The notes beneath the pieces are model-generated. The model saw nothing but the letters and a program-made list of their open reading frames with translations. It did not search any database and was not told the DNA's origin. Below, piece after piece: positions 18,351-28,249 of a DNA stretch of 64,000 nucleotides. Each line of letters begins with the position of its first letter. The stretch's first letter is position 1. Location: the NCBI GenBank assembly GCA_963795805.1, contig CAWCIV010000004.1, positions 79,052 to 143,051 on the forward strand, given 5' to 3'. The position numbers and the translations under genes are program-made. This stretch comes from an uncultured Chloroflexia bacterium (GTDB taxonomy: Bacteria; Chloroflexota; Dormibacteria; CF-121).

Positions 18351-20240
18351 GTGACCGACGCGCTCAACCTGCTGCAGTACGCGGTCAGCGCCGGGTTCGT
18401 GGGAATCAGCATCCTCATCCTGGTCGACTGGCTCCGCTACCGGGAGCGGAGCCGCGGCTACCTTGCCCTCGCCATCGGGCTCCTCGGGGTTACCTCGCTC
18501 ATCGGTCGCGTTACCCCGCTGGCCGGGCACAGCGTCAGCGGCATCCTGTCGGCACTGGCCCTGGTGGCCTTCATGGCGTCGGGCTACATGCTCCTCATCT
18601 TCCGCGACACCTTCGTCCCGCTGACCGGGCGCCTTCGCCTCGGGGCGCTGGTTGCCGTCGTGGCGGCCACCGTTTTCGAGGTCATCGTGGTCCCGCCGGG
18701 CACCACGCAGTCGACCTGGCTTCAGAGCGCGGCGGTCCTTGTCCTCATCCTCGTTTGGGCCGGATGCGTGCTGGAGCCGATCGTCCGGTTATGGTTGGCC
18801 TCCCGTGGACGGCCTGCCGTCCAACGGGCCCGGCTCCGGGCACTCAGCGCCGGCTATGCGGGGCTGGTTGCCGTGCTTCTCATCGCCGGCATCGGCGGGT
18901 CGGCCGCCTCGACGCCGCTGGTCCAGCTGATCATCCAGGTGGTCGCCCTCCTGGCGATCCCGCTGCTCTACGCCGGCTTCGCGCCCCCGCGCTGGCTGCG
19001 CCGGACCTGGCGTGACGCGGAGGAGGGTGAGCTGCGCGGCGCCATCCAGGACCTGCTGCTCTTCAGCCCGGACCGTGCCACCCTGGCGACCCGCGGCGCG
19101 GAATGGGCTCGACGGCTGGTGGGGGCCGACGGGGTCGCCGTCATCGAGCCGAATGGCGACCTGCTCGCCATCCAGGGAATGCACGGGGACGATGCCCGCC
19201 AGCTTGCGTCGCATGGCGATCCCAAGGGGCAGCCCACGCTGGTTGCGGGGGAAGGCTCCAACCGGCCGAACGCCATCGTGATCCGCCTCCCGCTCGACAC
19301 CGGCCCGGGCGCCCTCGTGGTCAGGTCGGGGCCGTTCACGCCGTTCTTCGGCACCGACGAGATGAACCGCCTCTGGTACTACGCGACGAACATCACCGCG
19401 GCCCTCGACCGGGCCCGAGTGACGGAGCGGATGGCCACGCTGGAGAAGACCAAGTCGCAGTTCCTGAACCTGGCCTCCCACGAGCTGCGCAGCCCCCTCG
19501 GCGTGATCAATGGGTACCTCTCCATGCTGGAACAGGGCTCGCTCGGCCAGCTCAAGGATTCAGGCGTACGCGCCATCGAGGTGCTGAAAGCCAAAGCCCT
19601 CGAGATGAATATGCTGGTGGCCCAGATGCTCGAGGCGGCCCGCCTCGAGGACGGCCGCCTCGCGCTCAAGCGCGATCGACTGGACCTCCGTCGGATCGCC
19701 AGGGAGGCGACCGAGGGCATCAAGCCGCTGGTCACCAACCGGCACCGCCTCGTCCTCGACAATGCCTCGGACCCAGTGCCGATCGTCGGTGATGAGGACC
19801 GCCTGGTGACGATCATCACCAACTTGCTGGAGAACGCGATCAAGTACTCGCCGCAGGGCGGCACGATCCAGTGCACCGTCCTGCAGGATGGCGGAGCGGG
19901 GGTTATCAAGGTGCGGGATGACGGCGTCGGGATCGGGGAGGAGGATTTACCGCGGCTGTTCAACCGCTTCGAGCGCATCCGCAATCGAGAGACCAGCCAC
20001 GTCGGGGGGACTGGACTCGGCCTGTACCTCTCCCGCGAGCTCGCCCGCCAGCACGGCGGGGATCTGCTGGTGGATTCGAAACCGGGGAAGGGCAGCACCT
20101 TCACACTGACCATGCCGATCGCCGACCAGCGCCCCGAGGTTGACCCCGAGGCCATCCCCTCGCCCGAGCCCGCGCCTGCCGCCGCCGAAGCGCCGAGGCT
20201 GCGCGTCGTGCCGGGAGGCGACGCCGACCTTACGGCGTAA
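18351..20240 (+). CDS. Membrane sensor histidine kinase (orphan)
   Basis: Multiple N-terminal TM helices, H-box LASHELRSPL, and N, G1 and G2 boxes (NLLENAIKYS, DDGVGI, GTGLGL). Confidence 0.92.
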   Translation: MTDALNLLQYAVSAGFVGISILILVDWLRYRERSRGYLALAIGLLGVTSLIGRVTPLAGHSVSGILSALALVAFMASGYMLLIFRDTFVPLTGRLRLGALVAVVAATVFEVIVVPPGTTQSTWLQSAAVLVLILVWAGCVLEPIVRLWLASRGRPAVQRARLRALSAGYAGLVAVLLIAGIGGSAASTPLVQLIIQVVALLAIPLLYAGFAPPRWLRRTWRDAEEGELRGAIQDLLLFSPDRATLATRGAEWARRLVGADGVAVIEPNGDLLAIQGMHGDDARQLASHGDPKGQPTLVAGEGSNRPNAIVIRLPLDTGPGALVVRSGPFTPFFGTDEMNRLWYYATNITAALDRARVTERMATLEKTKSQFLNLASHELRSPLGVINGYLSMLEQGSLGQLKDSGVRAIEVLKAKALEMNMLVAQMLEAARLEDGRLALKRDRLDLRRIAREATEGIKPLVTNRHRLVLDNASDPVPIVGDEDRLVTIITNLLENAIKYSPQGGTIQCTVLQDGGAGVIKVRDDGVGIGEEDLPRLFNRFERIRNRETSHVGGTGLGLYLSRELARQHGGDLLVDSKPGKGSTFTLTMPIADQRPEVDPEAIPSPEPAPAAAEAPRLRVVPGGDADLTA

Positions 20241-20715
20241 CCAGGTTCCAGCTCGGGTAGTGGCCGAGCGTGTCGCCCGATTTCTTGTCGTTGTGGAAGA
20301 AGTAGAGCGGGAGACCCTTGTAGGTAATCTGCAGGCTGCCATCGTCACGGGTGATGGTCGCCAGCGCTCCGGTCACGCCGGGCCCCCCGGTCGGCGTCTG
20401 CCCGGAGGGCACCGTGAGGGGTGGCCAGATGGTGGCGCATCCGCCCTTGCAGGCGCTGACGCCGGGGGAATCGCTGCTGAAGGTATAGACCGTCATCATG
20501 CTCGACGCAGCGACCAGGATCGTCCCGTTGCTCCCGACCGTCTGCGCGAGCACCACGGGGCTCGCGCTCGCTGCCGGCGTCGGGCTGGGCGTCGACGCTG
20601 CGGTCGCGGTGGGGCTTGGTGTTGCGGAAGAGCCTTGTGCGGCCTGGCTTCCGCAGGCGGCCAGCGCGCCAGCCAGCGCGAGTGAAGCGATCGATGCGCG
20701 CCAATTGATGACCAT
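20230..20715 (-). CDS. Predicted lipoprotein, COG4315 / Yx(FWY)xxD repeat family
   Basis: Lipobox LAAC, then TVYTFSSD...C...C...WPPL and YKGLPLYFFHND. Confidence 0.85.
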   Translation of the reverse strand: MVINWRASIASLALAGALAACGSQAAQGSSATPSPTATAASTPSPTPAASASPVVLAQTVGSNGTILVAASSMMTVYTFSSDSPGVSACKGGCATIWPPLTVPSGQTPTGGPGVTGALATITRDDGSLQITYKGLPLYFFHNDKKSGDTLGHYPSWNLVTP

Positions 20716-20720
20716 GCCCA

Positions 20721-20742
20721 GATAACTACGACGACCCGTTAC
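20721..20742 (-). promoter_or_regulatory. Candidate ECF-type promoter GTAAC-N8-GTA-N2-TATC
   Basis: The same spaced motif lies upstream of the ECF sigma gene at 23995-24016. Confidence 0.35.
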
Positions 20743-20758: not shown

Positions 20759-22669
20759 CTATCGGGTCAGCGATTCTCCCGCGGGCTCTGATTCGGTGAT
20801 CGCACGGCGGATGCGACCGGCGACGCCGGCAGCGTCGAGGCCAAGCTGAGTGAACAGCTCCGCCTGCGAACCCTGCTGGATAAAGGTGTCGGGCACGCCG
20901 ATCGCGGTCACCGGGATGCCGAGCGGGGCGAGGACCTCCGCGACCGCCGATCCGAAGCCGCCGCTGACCACGTTGTCCTCGAGCGTCACGATCGTCGGAT
21001 GGCGCCGTGCCCAGGTCTCCAGCCGCGGATCGAGCGGCTTGATGTAGCGGGCGTTGACCACGGTGATGGCTACCCCATCCTTCTCGAGGATCGTCGCCGT
21101 CTCCCTCGCGACCGACACCATCTTGCCGGTGGCGAGCAGCAGCGCCGCGCCGCCCTGGCGAAGGATCTCCCACTCGCCGACTGCGAGCACGCGCGGCGCT
21201 TGCGCGACGCCCTCGATGACGGCGCCCTTCGGAAACCGGATCGCGAACGGACCGGAATCCTGCAAGGTGACGGCGGTGTGCAGCAGGTCGCGCAACTCCT
21301 GCGCATCACTGGCGGCGGCCAGCGTCAGACCGGGCATCGCCCGCAGAAAGGTCAGGTCGAAGATCCCGTGATGCGACGGCCCGTCATCCCCCGTGATCCC
21401 GGCGCGATCGAGCGCGAAGATCACCGGGAGGCGGTGCAGGCAGACGTCCATCATCACCTGGTCCAGCGCGCGCTGCAGGAACGTCGAGTAGACGACGACG
21501 ACCGGTCGGAGCTTTGCCATGGCGAGCCCGGCGGCAAAGGTCACGGCATGCTGCTCCGCGATCCCGACGTCGAAGAATCGATCCGGAAACCGGTTGAGGA
21601 AGGGCCCCAACCCGGCACTGCTGCCCATGGCGGCCGTGATCGCAACCAGCCGCGGATCCTTCTCGGCCTCGGCGACGAGCGCCTCGCCGAAGACGTCGGT
21701 ATACAAGACCTTGCGACTCAGCGGCTTGGCCGTCACCAGGTCGAACGCGCTCGGACTGTGGAAGTGGTCGATCTCATCCTGCTCGGCGGGGCCGTACCCG
21801 CGGCCTTTGGTGGTGATGACGTGGACCGCCACCGGGCCGCCAAGCCGCTTGACCTGGGTCAACGTTCGCTCGATGTCGCCGATGTTGTGACCGTCGATCG
21901 GCCCCGAATACTTGATGCCGAGATACTCGAACAGGCTGCGCGGGGAAATCAGCTCCTTGAGCCCTTCCTTGATGCGGCGGCCGGCCTCCAGCGCTTTGCC
22001 TCCTGCCGGCACCGCGCGCAGGATGCGGTCAACCCGATTCTTGGTCCGGTGGTAGCTGGGGTTGAGCACGGTCAGCTGTTGCGCCAGGTGTTGGGCCAGG
22101 CCGCCAACCGTCGGAGCATAGGAGCGGCCGTTGTCGTTGAGGATGATGATGACCGGCGTCTTGCGGTGCCCGATATTGTTGAGCGCCTCGTAGGCCATCC
22201 CGCCCGTCAGTGCGCCGTCACCGACGACCACGACGACATGGCCGCTGTCCCCCTGCCGTCGCAGCGCCTCGGCCATACCCGACGCATAGCTGAGCCCGGT
22301 TGAGGCGTGGCTGTTCTCGATGAAGTCGTGCTCGCTTTCCGTCCGGTTTGGATAACCGCTCATGCCGCCCAGCTTTCGAAGCCGCCCGAACCCGCTCCGG
22401 GGCCGGGTGAGCAGCTTGTGGACGTAGGCCTGATGTCCGGTGTCGAAGAGAATGCGATCCGTCGGGCTGTTGAAGACGCGGTGAATCGCCAGCGTGAGTT
22501 CCACCACACCCAGGTTCGGTCCGAGGTGGCCGCCGGTTTTCGACACGGTCTCGATCAGGAACTGGCGGATCTCTTCGGCCAGCGCCTGCATCTCCGCCTC
22601 GCTGAGGGCGCGCAGGTCCGCCGGGCTTTGTACCCGATCGAGGATGGGCGTTTTTGCGCTATCGGTCAT
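20759..22669 (-). CDS. dxs: 1-deoxy-D-xylulose-5-phosphate synthase
   Basis: GGHLGPNLG, FDTGHQAYVHK, GDGALTGGMAYEALNN and DVGIAEQHAV. Confidence 0.97.
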   Translation of the reverse strand: MTDSAKTPILDRVQSPADLRALSEAEMQALAEEIRQFLIETVSKTGGHLGPNLGVVELTLAIHRVFNSPTDRILFDTGHQAYVHKLLTRPRSGFGRLRKLGGMSGYPNRTESEHDFIENSHASTGLSYASGMAEALRRQGDSGHVVVVVGDGALTGGMAYEALNNIGHRKTPVIIILNDNGRSYAPTVGGLAQHLAQQLTVLNPSYHRTKNRVDRILRAVPAGGKALEAGRRIKEGLKELISPRSLFEYLGIKYSGPIDGHNIGDIERTLTQVKRLGGPVAVHVITTKGRGYGPAEQDEIDHFHSPSAFDLVTAKPLSRKVLYTDVFGEALVAEAEKDPRLVAITAAMGSSAGLGPFLNRFPDRFFDVGIAEQHAVTFAAGLAMAKLRPVVVVYSTFLQRALDQVMMDVCLHRLPVIFALDRAGITGDDGPSHHGIFDLTFLRAMPGLTLAAASDAQELRDLLHTAVTLQDSGPFAIRFPKGAVIEGVAQAPRVLAVGEWEILRQGGAALLLATGKMVSVARETATILEKDGVAITVVNARYIKPLDPRLETWARRHPTIVTLEDNVVSGGFGSAVAEVLAPLGIPVTAIGVPDTFIQQGSQAELFTQLGLDAAGVAGRIRRAITESEPAGESLTR

Positions 22670-22754: not shown

Positions 22755-23426
22755 TCAGACGGTGTAGACCTGCACCTTGCCGGCCGCGACCCGAACCTGC
22801 AACGTCGGGAGGGGCGGCAGCGGACTCGTGTACTGGTCGGTGGGCTGCCCGCTCTTTTCGAAGGTGGCGCCGTGGCACGGGCATTCGAAGCGATCCCGGA
22901 ACTTGCTGTAGTTCAGGATGCAGCCCATGTGCGTGCAGACAGCCGACAGGCCCTTGACCTCCTGCCCGGTTCGTACCAGAAAACCTTCGATCGCGCCGGA
23001 CCGGAAGGCGACCGGCGTTCCCTCGGGCAGATCGGTGACGGCTTTCACGGTTTGCCAGCTTCCCTTCTCGACCAGGAGCTGACCCCCGACGGGCGGTTTC
23101 GGCTTCATCAGCTGGTCGACGCCGACCGCGGCCGCCACGCCGGCGGCTAGCCCGCTGGCCCCGGCCAGCAGCATCGAACGCCGGCTGTGTCGCGCGACGG
23201 CGGGCTTCTCCGGCGACCGCTCCTTGACCCATTCACCGATCGACCCCTGCATCCTGGCCAGAAAGTCGCTCGATGGCAATCCAGCCCCGGGCTTGGCGGC
23301 GTGCAGCATGGCGGCGGTCTGGCGGGCGCCCAGTGCATCCTGGTCGGCCAGCGGGGTGCGCTCCGGCCGGCGGTCCTGCACGATGTCCTCGACGTACTGA
23401 TCGAGCTGCTCGGGATCGTCGTTCAC
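22755..23426 (-). CDS. Rieske [2Fe-2S] protein with ~80-aa N-terminal extension and internal twin-arginine / TM segment (putative anti-sigma factor)
   Basis: CTHMGC and CPCH motifs, and SRRSMLL followed by a hydrophobic helix. GTGA overlap with the ECF sigma gene. Confidence 0.85.
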   Translation of the reverse strand: MNDDPEQLDQYVEDIVQDRRPERTPLADQDALGARQTAAMLHAAKPGAGLPSSDFLARMQGSIGEWVKERSPEKPAVARHSRRSMLLAGASGLAAGVAAAVGVDQLMKPKPPVGGQLLVEKGSWQTVKAVTDLPEGTPVAFRSGAIEGFLVRTGQEVKGLSAVCTHMGCILNYSKFRDRFECPCHGATFEKSGQPTDQYTSPLPPLPTLQVRVAAGKVQVYTV

Positions 23427-23983
23427 GGCGTCCTCCCCCGCTCGCGGCCGGCCCGGTTGAGGGCACGGAACTGCAAGACCTTGACGTTCGTCTCGCTCAA
23501 GTTCAGTTCGTGGGCGGTTTCCCGCACGGAATAGCCGCGGAGAAAGCGGAGCTCGAGCACCCGCCGGTACTGATCGGGCAGGGTGGCAAGCAAGGCATCG
23601 ACCCGCTGGGCGGCCTCGAGGTTCTCGCGCGTCATCGGCCCCCTGGAGATATCCTCGTCGATCCCAGTGGTGTCCTCCGCGTAGTACTCGCGCCAGTGGT
23701 CGGCCAGGGTTGTCTGGGCGACCCGGTACAGCCAGCTCCGCAGCTCCGGAACCGACACGTCGCTGCGCATCCCGTGGATCGCCTTCATGAATACCTTCGA
23801 GGTGAGATCTTCCGCGTCGGCGCGGTTACCGACCCGGCTGTAAACGTACTGGTAGATGGCAGTGACGTGCGTCTGGTAGGCCCAGGTCAGATGCTCCTGA
23901 TCAGCCGCGCCGGGCCGGGGAAGCGCCACGACTTTGGGGGAACTCGCCAGCGCCGGGGCTCCGACCGGGTCTTCTTCTCGCAT
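23423..23983 (-). CDS. ECF RNA polymerase sigma-70 factor
   Basis: Region 2 (IYQYVYSRVGNRADAEDLTSKVF, SWLYRVA) and region 4 (LPDQYRRVLELRF...NVKVLQFRAL). Confidence 0.93.
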   Translation of the reverse strand: MREEDPVGAPALASSPKVVALPRPGAADQEHLTWAYQTHVTAIYQYVYSRVGNRADAEDLTSKVFMKAIHGMRSDVSVPELRSWLYRVAQTTLADHWREYYAEDTTGIDEDISRGPMTRENLEAAQRVDALLATLPDQYRRVLELRFLRGYSVRETAHELNLSETNVKVLQFRALNRAGRERGRTP

Positions 23984-23994
23984 CCGCTCCCGCT

Positions 23995-24016
23995 GTTATA
24001 TACCGGTCAGGGTTAC
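23995..24016 (-). promoter_or_regulatory. Candidate autoregulatory ECF promoter GTAAC-N8-GTA-N2-TAAC
   Basis: Lies 11 nt upstream of the sigma ATG. A matching motif sits at 20721-20742. Confidence 0.35.
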
Positions 24017-24081
24017 GCTGCGCGGCTTCCGGGAATACTGATCAATGGAAATTGCTTAGCTATCATGGAGCCGCATTGCCG

Positions 24082-25074
24082 ATGGACAAGGACCGCGACT
24101 ACGACGTCATCATCATCGGCGCCGGGCCGGCGGGCCTGACCGCCGCCCTGTACGCCGGTCGCGCGCGGGTCAAGACCGTGCTGCTGGAGCGGGGTGTGCC
24201 CGGTGGGCAGTTGCTGAACACGGACGCCATCGAGGACTACCCGGGATTCGATCACATCACGGGCGTCGAGCTGGCCCAACGCATGGCGGAGCAGGTGACC
24301 AAGTTCGGGGTCGCCCTGGAGACGACCGGCGTGACGGCCATCCGGTCGCATGGCAACAAGAAAGTCGTTGAAACCGAGAACGGTTCGTACACCGCCGACT
24401 TCGTCATCCTGACCGCCGGCGGCTCGCCGAAAAAGCTTGGTATCCCCGGGGAAGACGAGTTCCAGGGCCACGGGGTATCCCAATGCGCCGTCTGTGATGG
24501 CGCCTTCTTCAAAAACGAGGAGGTGGCGGTCATCGGCGGCGGCGACGCCGCGGTCGAGGAAGCCGTCTTCCTCACCCGCTACTGCAAGAAGGTCTACCTC
24601 ATCCACCGGCGCGACACCTTTCGCGCCCAGGCGATCCTGGTCGAAGCGGCCCGCCAAAATCCCAACGTCGAGATCATCATGAACACGGTCGTCACCGAGG
24701 TCACCGGGCACGACGGCCAGGTCACGGGGATCACCATCAAGGACGTCACGACGGGAGCCATGCGACCGCTGCCGGTTACCGGCGTCTTCGTCTTCGTCGG
24801 GTTCCTCCCGAACACCCAGTTCTTCGACCACCGCGACCACGTCGAGCACGACCCGCTGGGATTCCTGACGACCGACGCCACCATGCAGACGAGCGTGCCC
24901 GGGGTCTACGCGGCCGGCGACGTGCGCTCCCAGCTGACGCGCCAGATCACCACGGCGGTGGGCGATGCCACGACCGCGGCCATCGACGCCGTCAAAAAGC
25001 TCGAGCTCCGCAAGCATCAGCCGACGCCCGTCCCGGTCGATGCCTACGGGTCAACCCACCCAACCGAAAGCTAG
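24082..25074 (+). CDS. trxB: Thioredoxin-disulfide reductase
   Basis: GAGPAG FAD motif, CAVC active site, GGGDAAVEEA and YAAGDV. Confidence 0.95.
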   Translation: MDKDRDYDVIIIGAGPAGLTAALYAGRARVKTVLLERGVPGGQLLNTDAIEDYPGFDHITGVELAQRMAEQVTKFGVALETTGVTAIRSHGNKKVVETENGSYTADFVILTAGGSPKKLGIPGEDEFQGHGVSQCAVCDGAFFKNEEVAVIGGGDAAVEEAVFLTRYCKKVYLIHRRDTFRAQAILVEAARQNPNVEIIMNTVVTEVTGHDGQVTGITIKDVTTGAMRPLPVTGVFVFVGFLPNTQFFDHRDHVEHDPLGFLTTDATMQTSVPGVYAAGDVRSQLTRQITTAVGDATTAAIDAVKKLELRKHQPTPVPVDAYGSTHPTES

Positions 25075-26732: not shown

Positions 26733-27059
26733 GTGAACCTGATCGCCCTGATCAAAGAGCGCGCGAAGTACTACAAGTGCCTCGCCTGTTCCCAGGCGCT
26801 CGCCGACTGTGACGTGAACCTGCTCAACGAGAGCGACGGGCACTGCACGGTCGAGGTCACCTGCGCCAATTGTGGCGTCAGTTTCGTCGCGGTGCTCCTG
26901 CTCAAGAAGGCCAAGCATCCGGACGGGCTTCCGCGTGCGGCAAAGGCGGGACCGATCAGCGGTGACGAGTTGCTCGACGTCCACCAGGAGCTGCAGTCGT
27001 TCAACGCGCCGCTGAAGGAGCTGGTCCGCTGGCGGCGGACGCACCCACAGACCTCCTAG
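26733..27059 (+). CDS. Hypothetical protein with two CxxC motifs (putative Zn-binding)
   Basis: CLAC and CANC motifs, and C-terminal PISGDELLDVH. Confidence 0.8.
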   Translation: MNLIALIKERAKYYKCLACSQALADCDVNLLNESDGHCTVEVTCANCGVSFVAVLLLKKAKHPDGLPRAAKAGPISGDELLDVHQELQSFNAPLKELVRWRRTHPQTS

Positions 27060-27091
27060 CCCGGTTCCGACCCAAACCTAGAATGACGACC

Positions 27092-28249
27092 ATGGTCTAT
27101 CTCGACCATTCCGCCACGACGCCGCTCGACCCGGAGGTCCTCCAGGCGATGATGCCGTACCTCACCGGAGAGTTTGGCAATGCCTCGAGCGTCTACGGCC
27201 TGGGCCAGCGAGCGCGCCAGGCCATTGACCAGGCGCGGGACGAGGTGGCGGCATTCTATGGGGTAGCCGCCAAGGAGGTCATCTTCACCTCGGGCGGGAC
27301 CGAGGGCGATAACTTTGCCTTCCGGGGCATCGCCGAGCGCAATGCCGACCGAGGCCGGCACGTCATCACCTCGACCATCGAGCATGACGCCGTCCTCCGC
27401 TCGGCCGACGAGCTCGAGCGCGAAGGCTTCGAGGTCACGCGGCTGCCGGTGGACCGGACCGGGTTGGTCGACCCGATGGATCTGGAACGCGCCCTTCGAA
27501 AGGACACCATCCTGGTCAGCATCATGATGGCGAATAACGAGATCGGGACGATCGAGCCGATCGCGGAACTGGTCGCGCTCACCCGCAATCACAGTGCTGC
27601 CTACTTTCACACCGATGCCGTGCAAGCCACCGGCAAGATCCCAATCTCGGTGGAGGGGCTCGGCGTCGATCTCCTATCGATGTCGGCGCACAAGCTGCAC
27701 GGCCCGAAGGGGGTCGGCGCGCTGATCGTGAGGTCCGGCGTCCGGGTGCAACCGCAAATCGTCGGCGGCGGGCACGAGCGGAACCGGCGGGCGGGCACGG
27801 AAAACGTGGCCGGCATCGTGGGGTTAGCCAGGGCCCTGACCATCGCCCATCGGGATCTCGCCAAAAACACGGAGCACCTGACGAGGTTGCGCGACCGCTT
27901 GATCGAGGGCGTGCTCGACCGCATTCCCCGCGCCGAGCTGACCGGCCATCCGACCAAGCGGCTTCCCCATCACGCGAGCTTCCTGTTCCAGGGCGTCGAG
28001 GGGGAATCGCTCCTGCTCCAACTCGACATGGAGGGGATCGCCGCCTCGTCCGGCTCGGCCTGTACCTCCGGATCGCTGGAGCCCAGTCATGTCATCCTGG
28101 CGCTCGGCTATCCGCGAGACCGTGCGCTGGGGAGCCTCCGGCTGTCCGTGGGCAAGGACACCTCCGACGAGGACATCGACCTGGTCCTGGATCGCCTCCC
28201 CGGCATGGTCGCCCGCCTGCGAACGATGGCGCCGATCTCCGCGGCATGA
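27092..28249 (+). CDS. iscS: Cysteine desulfurase (IscS/NifS family)
   Basis: YLDHSATT, HTDAVQA, SAHKLHGPKG (PLP Lys) and SSGSACTS (catalytic Cys). Confidence 0.95.
   Translation: MVYLDHSATTPLDPEVLQAMMPYLTGEFGNASSVYGLGQRARQAIDQARDEVAAFYGVAAKEVIFTSGGTEGDNFAFRGIAERNADRGRHVITSTIEHDAVLRSADELEREGFEVTRLPVDRTGLVDPMDLERALRKDTILVSIMMANNEIGTIEPIAELVALTRNHSAAYFHTDAVQATGKIPISVEGLGVDLLSMSAHKLHGPKGVGALIVRSGVRVQPQIVGGGHERNRRAGTENVAGIVGLARALTIAHRDLAKNTEHLTRLRDRLIEGVLDRIPRAELTGHPTKRLPHHASFLFQGVEGESLLLQLDMEGIAASSGSACTSGSLEPSHVILALGYPRDRALGSLRLSVGKDTSDEDIDLVLDRLPGMVARLRTMAPISAA

Follow-up and report, generated by a model that had tools for sequence, protein, structure and literature searches.

A Rieske [2Fe–2S] protein as candidate anti-sigma factor of an ECF127-like sigma factor in the Dormibacteria

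Introduction

This study concerns a gene for a sigma factor of the extracytoplasmic function (ECF) type and the Rieske [2Fe–2S] protein gene that overlaps its stop codon, both located in a 64,000-nucleotide stretch of DNA, hereafter the window, from an uncultured Chloroflexia soil bacterium of the class Dormibacteria (assembly GCA_963795805.1, contig CAWCIV010000004.1, positions 79,052 to 143,051). A preliminary description of the window, made from the sequence alone, had proposed that the Rieske protein is a membrane-spanning anti-sigma factor with a redox-sensing domain outside the cell, and had raised the question whether an existing ECF group already covers such a pair. One does: ECF127 has a Rieske [2Fe–2S] protein encoded at position +1, which carries a twin-arginine translocation (Tat) signal and is regarded as a possible anti-sigma factor (Casas-Pastor et al. 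2021 supplement), so the anti-sigma idea is not new. According to the same supplement, the Tat signal occurs in only 10–40% of ECF127 members, the group is 100% actinobacterial, its promoter word is "GTAACCC −35", its genetic context comprises an acyltransferase and a calcineurin-like phosphoesterase, and the partner protein is stated to be similar to the ECF121 anti-sigma factors (Casas-Pastor et al. 2021). Rieske proteins are not mentioned in the main text of that article, and a 2022 review places ECF127 under "unknown mechanism" for want of experimental data (PMC8999054).

In the ECF121 pair σBldN/RsbN of Streptomyces venezuelae (PDB code: 6DXO), the anti-sigma factor is encoded at +1; RsbN defines the class III anti-sigma domain and consists of three helices with flexible linkers, followed by one membrane helix (PMC6101532). 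The promoters of BldN, ShbA and SigD follow the pattern (C)GTAAC-N16-18-CG(T/A)T. Among anti-sigma factors with a redox-active or Fe–S cofactor, RsrA, the partner of σR, is a zinc–thiol switch, and RsmA, the partner of σM in Streptomyces coelicolor, carries a [2Fe–2S] cluster; both are soluble, cytoplasmic proteins. Respiratory Rieske subunits are inserted into the membrane in a Tat-dependent manner by means of an uncleaved N-terminal signal anchor, and actinobacterial QcrA also has an internal twin-arginine (RR) motif. To our knowledge, no anti-sigma factor with an extracytoplasmic Fe–S sensor has been characterised experimentally.

On the basis of the comparisons reported below, we think it rather probable that the window encodes a sigma/anti-sigma pair of the ECF127 type, in which a single-pass anti-sigma factor with an exported Rieske sensor would release the sigma factor under Fe–S control, with a regulon marked by a common promoter-like motif.

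Results and discussion

Layout and conservation of the sigma–Rieske pair

The two genes and the parts of the Rieske protein are the following (window coordinates; predicted local distance difference test abbreviated as pLDDT):

23423..23983, minus strand: ECF sigma gene, 186 aa, regions σ2 and σ4 only (Pfam Sigma70_r2, Sigma70_r4/r4_2, Sigma70_ECF)
22755..23426, minus strand: Rieske protein gene (anti-sigma candidate), 223 aa, made of an N-domain, a Tat-type signal anchor and a Rieske domain
23423..23426, minus strand: GTGA overlap between the TGA stop of the sigma gene and the GTG start of the Rieske protein gene, 4 nucleotides (nt), indicative of translational coupling
23190..23426, minus strand: N-domain, residues 1–79, predicted to be cytoplasmic, with three predicted helices (5–16, 29–44, 53–70)
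23166..23186, minus strand: twin-arginine motif S81-R-R-S-M-L-L87
23118..23174, minus strand: Ala/Gly-rich hydrophobic segment of 19 residues (85–103), predicted signal anchor and single membrane helix
22758..23069, minus strand: bc-type Rieske [2Fe–2S] domain, residues 120–223, predicted to be extracytoplasmic (pLDDT >90)
22920..22937, minus strand: box I, CTHMGC, residues 164–169, with Cys and His ligands and one disulfide Cys
22860..22883, minus strand: box II, CPCHGATF, residues 182–189, with ligands, the other disulfide Cys and Ala/Phe replacing Ser/Tyr

The open reading frames (ORFs) and the Pfam matches agree with the GTGA-overlapped gene pair of the preliminary description, and the elements read there in the second protein, namely an N-terminus of about 80 residues, the SRRSMLL motif with a hydrophobic helix and the CTHMGC and CPCH boxes, are all present in the 223-residue sequence.

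It had also been suggested to survey how often this sigma clade neighbours such Rieske proteins. A sigma homologue lies immediately upstream of the Rieske gene in all of the 30 best loci found in 151 genomes of the phylum, with a 4- or 8-nt overlap inferred in 27 of the 30 (the start codon being picked as the one nearest to the sigma stop, which is also where the protein alignment starts). Species-representative genomes scanned with a 13-sequence alignment yielded 80 loci, 75 of which have the sigma gene, the others being cut by a contig end (three) or corresponding to weak, unrelated Rieske proteins (two); among the 77 informative loci, the sigma gene is thus upstream in 75. The pairing of the two genes is beyond chance. 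Its hosts in the Chloroflexota belong to the Dormibacteria, the Limnocylindria, the Chloroflexia and the Ktedonobacterales, close homologues being named Candidatus Dormibacteraeota or Dormibacteria, and those in the Actinomycetota include Amycolatopsis, Streptomyces, Catenulispora, Actinocrinis and Streptosporangiaceae.

Relation to ECF127 and to BldN

In a maximum-likelihood tree, 25 Rieske-linked sigma factors form one clade (support 100/100), which is sister to BldN (support 91/81) and within which the actinobacterial proteins are nested in the diversity of the class Dormibacteria. A hidden Markov model (HMM) of the family scores the window sigma factor at 241 bits and the Rieske-linked sigma factors at 179–254 bits, as against 124 and 115 bits for BldN and 104 bits for the best paralogue from the same genome; the closest sigma factor of solved structure is BldN σ2 (6dxo, E 1.6e-16). 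Note that the Streptomyces which carries the Rieske pair also holds a separate, true BldN.

The link with ECF127 comes from actinobacterial loci. The pair is present in 7 of the 151 genomes of the order that contains Amycolatopsis, and in loci L157 and L160 of this order the genes follow each other as sigma, Rieske, shared motif (see below), cupredoxin lipoprotein, PF00149 phosphoesterase with a Tat signal, and a protein with four transmembrane (TM) segments. The sigma factors and N-domains of these loci match the profiles of the window's family; sigma factors from the order Mycobacteriales in an ECF127s1-like context score 180–198 bits on the family HMM, and the actinobacterial sigma factors of this context share the 100/100 clade with that of the window. 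Judging from these sequence relationships, the window pair is a member of an ECF127-like group that extends to a second phylum. It has in common with ECF127 the Rieske protein at +1, the Tat signal, the proposal of the partner as anti-sigma factor and the promoter word, GTAACCC being found upstream of the sigma gene at 24016-24010; the calcineurin-like phosphoesterase of ECF127s1 is found in the actinobacterial relatives. The two differ in host, since the window comes from the Dormibacteria (Chloroflexota) and so falls outside the actinobacterial range of ECF127, a range that is descriptive rather than defining and mirrors a 2018-era database. They also differ in that the RR motif and the hydrophobic anchor are nearly universal in the relatives collected here, and in that the predicted co-regulated gene of the window encodes a PF03640 lipoprotein instead of belonging to a cupredoxin/phosphoesterase operon. 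The module is not limited to Actinobacteria but widespread in Chloroflexota, including uncultured Dormibacteria, and its carriers include culturable organisms such as Amycolatopsis, Streptomyces, Catenulispora and members of the Mycobacteriales.

A Tat-type anchor and a Rieske domain unlike those of cytochrome bc complexes

The segment that precedes the Rieske domain matches the pattern of Tat substrates, (S/T)-R-R-x-(F/L)-L followed by a helix of moderate hydrophobicity, and the genome contains tatC. The RR pair is kept in 28 of 29 loci of the phylum and in about 97% of wider relatives. The hydrophobic segment itself is modelled by AlphaFold2 at low pLDDT.

The Rieske domain is the sole Pfam domain of the 223-residue protein (residues 123–197, E 1.9e-14). 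The top Foldseek matches of its model are small bc-type domains, namely those of Chlorobaculum (8hn2), Kuenenia (9rk4), AioB, PetC and PetC3. In fold, ligands, disulfide bond and Pro-loop, it is like the Rieske subunits of cytochrome bc1/b6f and arsenite oxidase (QcrA, PetC, PetC3, AioB). Its cluster ligands, disulfide cysteines and Pro-loop are those of a functional bc-type domain, the ligands, among them both His, being kept in 96–100% of relatives. In some lineages (L016, L021 and L028, CPCD; L025, CTD; 2 of 49 representatives), one His ligand is replaced by Asp in an otherwise conserved protein.

As the preliminary description had pointed out, the residues after CPCHG are A-T-F instead of S-x-Y. 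This feature turns out to be typical of the whole family: A-x-F is found in about 90% of relatives, the Phe being nearly invariant. The 3.2-Mb genome, assembled in four contigs, contains eight ORFs with a Rieske domain and three cytochrome b genes, each of the latter beside its own Rieske gene and all outside the window, so that the absence of a cytochrome b gene near the pair, also noted earlier, holds for the entire window. These three Rieske/cytochrome b modules lie at C3:68419-69509, C4:751018-752146 and C2:250109-251201 (genome G000). In their Rieske proteins, CPCHG is followed by S-x-F, G-x-Y and S-x-Y, and these differences close to the cluster suggest several bc-type complexes of different potential. 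Of the bc-type Rieske proteins of the genome, only the sigma-linked one, with A-x-F, has neither of the two hydrogen-bond donors, Ser and Tyr.

Could the protein nonetheless be an ordinary respiratory subunit, like QcrA or PetC, of a cytochrome bc or b6f complex? Its homologues appear in databases as QcrA or as "cytochrome b6-f complex iron-sulfur subunit", NCBIfam gives at best partial matches, to PetC, QcrA and AioB, and the bc-type fold, the CxH...CxxH ligands and the disulfide cysteines are those of such subunits. The NCBIfam score is, however, far under the cut-offs (42.9 bits versus 154–250 bits), the genome already has three Rieske/cytochrome b modules of its own, and the partner gene of the family is always a sigma factor. 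Nor do the homologues occur mostly in cytochrome bc operons, an arrangement that the preliminary description had held against its own proposal: none of the loci examined has a cytochrome b gene next to it. Compared with QcrA, PetC, PetC3 and AioB, the window protein also differs by the lack of a gene for cytochrome b or a catalytic partner, by an extra head of 79 residues, predicted to be cytoplasmic, by its obligate pairing with a sigma factor and by A-x-F in place of Ser and Tyr. We therefore consider a respiratory role very improbable, and the database labels that assign these proteins to cytochrome b6f or to QcrA are probably wrong.

A motif shared by the sigma operon and envelope protein genes

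The following features bear on the regulation of the pair:

24001..24016, minus strand: promoter-like motif (GTAACCCTGACCGGTA) located 33 nt upstream of the start codon (ATG) of the sigma gene
20727..20742, minus strand: another copy of this motif (GTAACGGGTCGTCGTA), located 27 nt upstream of the start codon (ATG at 20715) of the lipoprotein gene
20230..20715, minus strand: PF03640 (Lipoprotein_15 / SCO0930-like) lipoprotein gene, assigned by Pfam and NCBIfam, predicted regulon member

In about 77 related loci, the sigma gene is closely preceded by the motif, GTAAC-N6/7-(C/G)GTA, for a chance expectation of about 0.005 per 330-nt upstream region. Three gene arrangements have it before both the sigma gene and the neighbouring gene for a lipoprotein or a cupredoxin. 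In the Dormibacteria, its presence before the small PF03640 lipoprotein gene beside the operon is conserved in 12–13 loci; in Limnocylindria, other Chloroflexota and actinobacterial loci, the gene preceded by the motif encodes a cupredoxin with His/Cys/His/Met copper ligands. The genome of the window has three PF03640 genes, of which two are preceded by the exact motif and the third by a near-motif. What is new here is the occurrence of this motif before both the sigma gene and the neighbouring lipoprotein gene. It predicts, from sequence comparison, an envelope regulon that is autoregulated and has a theme of copper or redox chemistry, and gives this regulon a concrete content: the sigma operon and a gene for a cupredoxin or a PF03640 lipoprotein, both preceded by the common motif. 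As to the PF03640 lipoprotein, its AlphaFold2 model is unusable (pLDDT 43), and we found neither a sequence relative in the PDB nor literature on the function of the family.

The distance between the G of GTAAC and the start codon follows a simple rule in the window and in loci L002-L109 and L156-L161, being 24–28 nt for genes without a Shine–Dalgarno sequence and at least 32 nt for genes with one. This is what one would expect if transcription began about 25 nt beyond the G of GTAAC, and so would imply leaderless transcripts where the distance is 24–28 nt. Such a start would put the TA at about −12/−11 and GTAAC at about −25 to −21. GTAAC is then only 6–7 nt from the −10-like TA, as compared with a spacer of 16–18 nt in the BldN, ShbA and SigD promoters (16 nt for BldN), which points either to an unusual mode of recognition or to another factor reading the motif. 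A canonical −10 element lying 16–18 nt after GTAAC was considered and rejected because the CG(A/G)TG(A/G) words present there hold the start codon and vary in spacing.

If another factor reads the motif, it could be the operator of a separate DNA-binding regulator, for example one of the OmpR type bound to the two GTA repeats, which are one helical turn apart, that co-regulates the sigma operon and the lipoprotein gene. Besides the spacing, about 10 bp short of the −35/−10 pair of the BldN, ShbA and SigD promoters, this idea is favoured by the fact that one genomic copy of the motif precedes a response-regulator gene. But the closest sigma groups use GTAAC as their −35 word, the motif tracks this particular sigma gene across two phyla, and ECF sigma factors usually autoregulate; moreover, the match at the response-regulator gene may be noise, as the number of copies in the genome is within chance. 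Altogether, we regard an operator of this kind as improbable and retain the motif as a predicted promoter element of the sigma factor.

The motif occurs 21 times in the genome, which is not above the simple chance expectation of 43. Other copies or near-copies lie at G000 C1:220625(−), C4:1106300-1106950(+), C1:1107368(−) and C4:474142(−). The genes behind them encode two further PF03640 lipoproteins, a DUF899 (thioredoxin-like) protein and a secreted 360-residue protein without assigned family; one further copy is the above-mentioned one upstream of a response-regulator gene. Given the chance-level count, the matches at the DUF899, 360-residue and response-regulator genes are therefore only leads. 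Another ECF sigma gene (C4:1108169-1108711) is located about 1.2 kb from the third PF03640 gene. A second element, AGTATTCC (window ~24028-24040, minus strand), recurs upstream of the sigma motif, at a varying distance, in several lineages of the class Dormibacteria (loci L006, L007, L059 and L071), and could be part of the divergent promoter or another operator.

The N-domain and the case for an anti-sigma factor

A profile of the N-domain retrieves 740 clusters (50% identity) among 1.84 billion representative sequences, and the Rieske boxes are present in every full-length member, the exceptions being frameshifted or truncated. Across 286 relatives, each of the three predicted helices has a signature: L-x2-(Y/F)-(V/I)-(E/D)-D-L-L-x2-R-R-P for helix 1, (D/E)2-x4-R-x-A-(I/A)-x-L-R-A-A-R-P-G for helix 2 and P-x3-F-V-x2-L-x3-L for helix 3, the conserved residues being L15, R19, R20, P21, A38, L41, P51, F55, L/M59 and L/I63. 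The PSSDFLARM segment, singled out in the preliminary description as anti-sigma-like, corresponds to the beginning of helix 3, which is the part of the domain with the highest conservation.

The domain is not of the class I/ZAS type: its 79 residues contain no Cys and no HxxxCxxC motif, three helices are predicted instead of the four of that class, and none of 29 members matched zf-HC2, RskA, RseA_N or similar Pfam models at E-values up to 10. It recalls class III instead, in that the window protein, as modelled, has three helices N-terminal to a single membrane helix. In that class, helix 3 is gripped by σ2 and σ4 and helices 1–2 sit on σ4. The pair resembles σBldN/RsbN by its partner gene at +1, by the succession of three helices, one membrane helix and an outside domain, and by GTAAC, the −35 word of BldN promoters. 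It differs in that RsbN has no Tat motif and carries a domain other than Rieske on the outside. Like RsrA and RsmA, the Rieske protein would use a redox-active or Fe–S cofactor to set sigma activity; unlike in these proteins, the predicted position of the cofactor domain is outside the membrane, and the N-domain carries neither HxxxCxxC nor any Cys.

No paralogue of the N-domain was found in the genome of the window. Neither were cases in which the N-domain is joined to another outside domain, the apparent non-Rieske members being frameshifted or truncated, nor natural sigma/N-domain fusions, the few candidates (P0144, P0136, P0167) being frameshifted or mis-called fragments. One paralogue in locus L031 (G051:C56:92000-96000; ORF ending near 1881, minus strand) has the N-domain, the RR motif and the membrane helix, then a stop instead of a Rieske domain, which makes it a pseudogene by truncation or else a variant devoid of the sensor.

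The scheme that we favour can be described as follows: (i) the three-helix N-domain (residues 1–79) would bind and sequester the sigma factor encoded just upstream; (ii) the S-R-R motif and the Ala/Gly-rich helix would form a Tat signal anchor by which the Rieske domain is exported folded and loaded with its cluster, a step proposed because of the motif, the presence of tatC and the known biology of Rieske proteins; (iii) outside the cell, the [2Fe–2S] Rieske domain, of low-potential type, would act as the sensor; (iv) loss of or damage to the cluster, a redox change, or failed loading or export might inactivate the anti-sigma factor; (v) the freed sigma factor would transcribe its own operon and the neighbouring envelope lipoprotein gene from GTAAC-N6/7-(C/G)GTA, as predicted because the motif is conserved. 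The co-regulation of a cupredoxin could reflect either a redox relay that links the Rieske domain with the cupredoxin or a switch to copper-type envelope proteins when the Fe–S supply or the cluster fails.

We infer the anti-sigma role of the Rieske protein from the helical head, the single membrane segment, the outside domain, the translational coupling, the linkage across two phyla, the RR motif kept in about 97% of relatives and the presence of tatC. The part of the earlier proposal that invoked a redox or Fe–S theme among the neighbouring genes did not stand (see below), and its suggestion that the sensor reads the quinone pool has no support, as nothing found points there. A more specific version of the scheme holds that only the cluster-loaded protein passes Tat proofreading and becomes membrane-anchored, so that the sigma factor would report Fe–S supply or cluster integrity, as affected by iron limitation, oxidants or copper, and would induce the cupredoxin or PF03640 gene from a cognate GTAAC at about −25 to −21. 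We put this version forward tentatively, as a possibility on the doubtful side.

Several observations weigh against an anti-sigma role of the Rieske protein in this regulon. The helices of the N-domain are modelled by AlphaFold2, using a 38-sequence alignment, at moderate confidence only (pLDDT 60–75). Comparisons of the domain with Pfam anti-sigma families, with PDB sequences in a profile search and with the RsbN profile gave nothing significant: aligned by hhalign with the RsbN N-domain (26 sequences from 26 Streptomycetaceae genomes), the N-domain family gives an E-value of 0.37 and a probability of 0.2%, and with the single RsbN sequence an E-value of 0.18. The profile–profile comparison not being significant, the likeness to RsbN is therefore architectural only. 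The authors of ECF127 scored the partner protein as soluble, with 0 TM helices (Casas-Pastor et al. 2021 supplement). Finally, the motif spacing is short of a canonical −35/−10 pair by about 10 bp, or about one helical turn, so recognition of the motif by this sigma factor is not certain.

The lack of detectable homology between the N-domain and known anti-sigma domains also fits a different role, in which the Rieske protein is a co-transcribed, Tat-exported electron carrier serving the cupredoxin or the lipoprotein, the N-domain acts in assembly or Tat proofreading (e.g. by binding a chaperone), and the sigma factor is controlled otherwise. Such a carrier would need the ligands, disulfide cysteines and Pro-loop of a functional bc-type Rieske domain, all of which are kept, and the co-regulated cupredoxin would be a plausible redox partner. 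However, no other anti-sigma candidate is conserved beside the sigma gene, and the sigma factor is a minimal ECF protein without any regulatory extension. A conserved cytoplasmic head, one membrane segment and overlapping codons make up the standard layout of an anti-sigma factor, and the sister pair BldN/RsbN shows the same layout. We therefore judge the electron-carrier role unlikely, and keep the Rieske protein as the candidate anti-sigma factor.

Neighbouring genes

The genes closest to the pair are the following:

24052-25074, plus strand: trxB, divergent from the sigma gene
20759-22669, minus strand: dxs, 85 nt downstream of the Rieske gene
27083-28249: iscS, 3 kb upstream of the sigma gene

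The preliminary description had seen in trxB, dxs and iscS a redox or Fe–S theme. According to tblastn searches, these genes and a PMT-like gene are kept next to the pair only in a close Dormibacteria family (loci L032-L052) and are absent from every more distant locus; they reflect lineage synteny only, and a functional link of the pair to trxB, dxs, iscS or the PMT-like gene is rejected, these neighbours being confined to that family. All-against-all clustering of neighbouring ORFs was overwhelmed by the shadow ORFs that come with the high GC content of the DNA. The PF03640 gene of most Dormibacteria is directly 3′ of the Rieske gene (at +660 to +720), and dxs appears to have been inserted between the two in the subclade of the window only (compare L035-L047). 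Lastly, between the PMT-like gene and iscS, a 108-residue ORF (26733-27059, plus strand) without Pfam or NCBIfam match encodes a zinc-ribbon-like protein with two CxxC pairs, which is conserved at 55–95% identity in 17 Dormibacteria loci.

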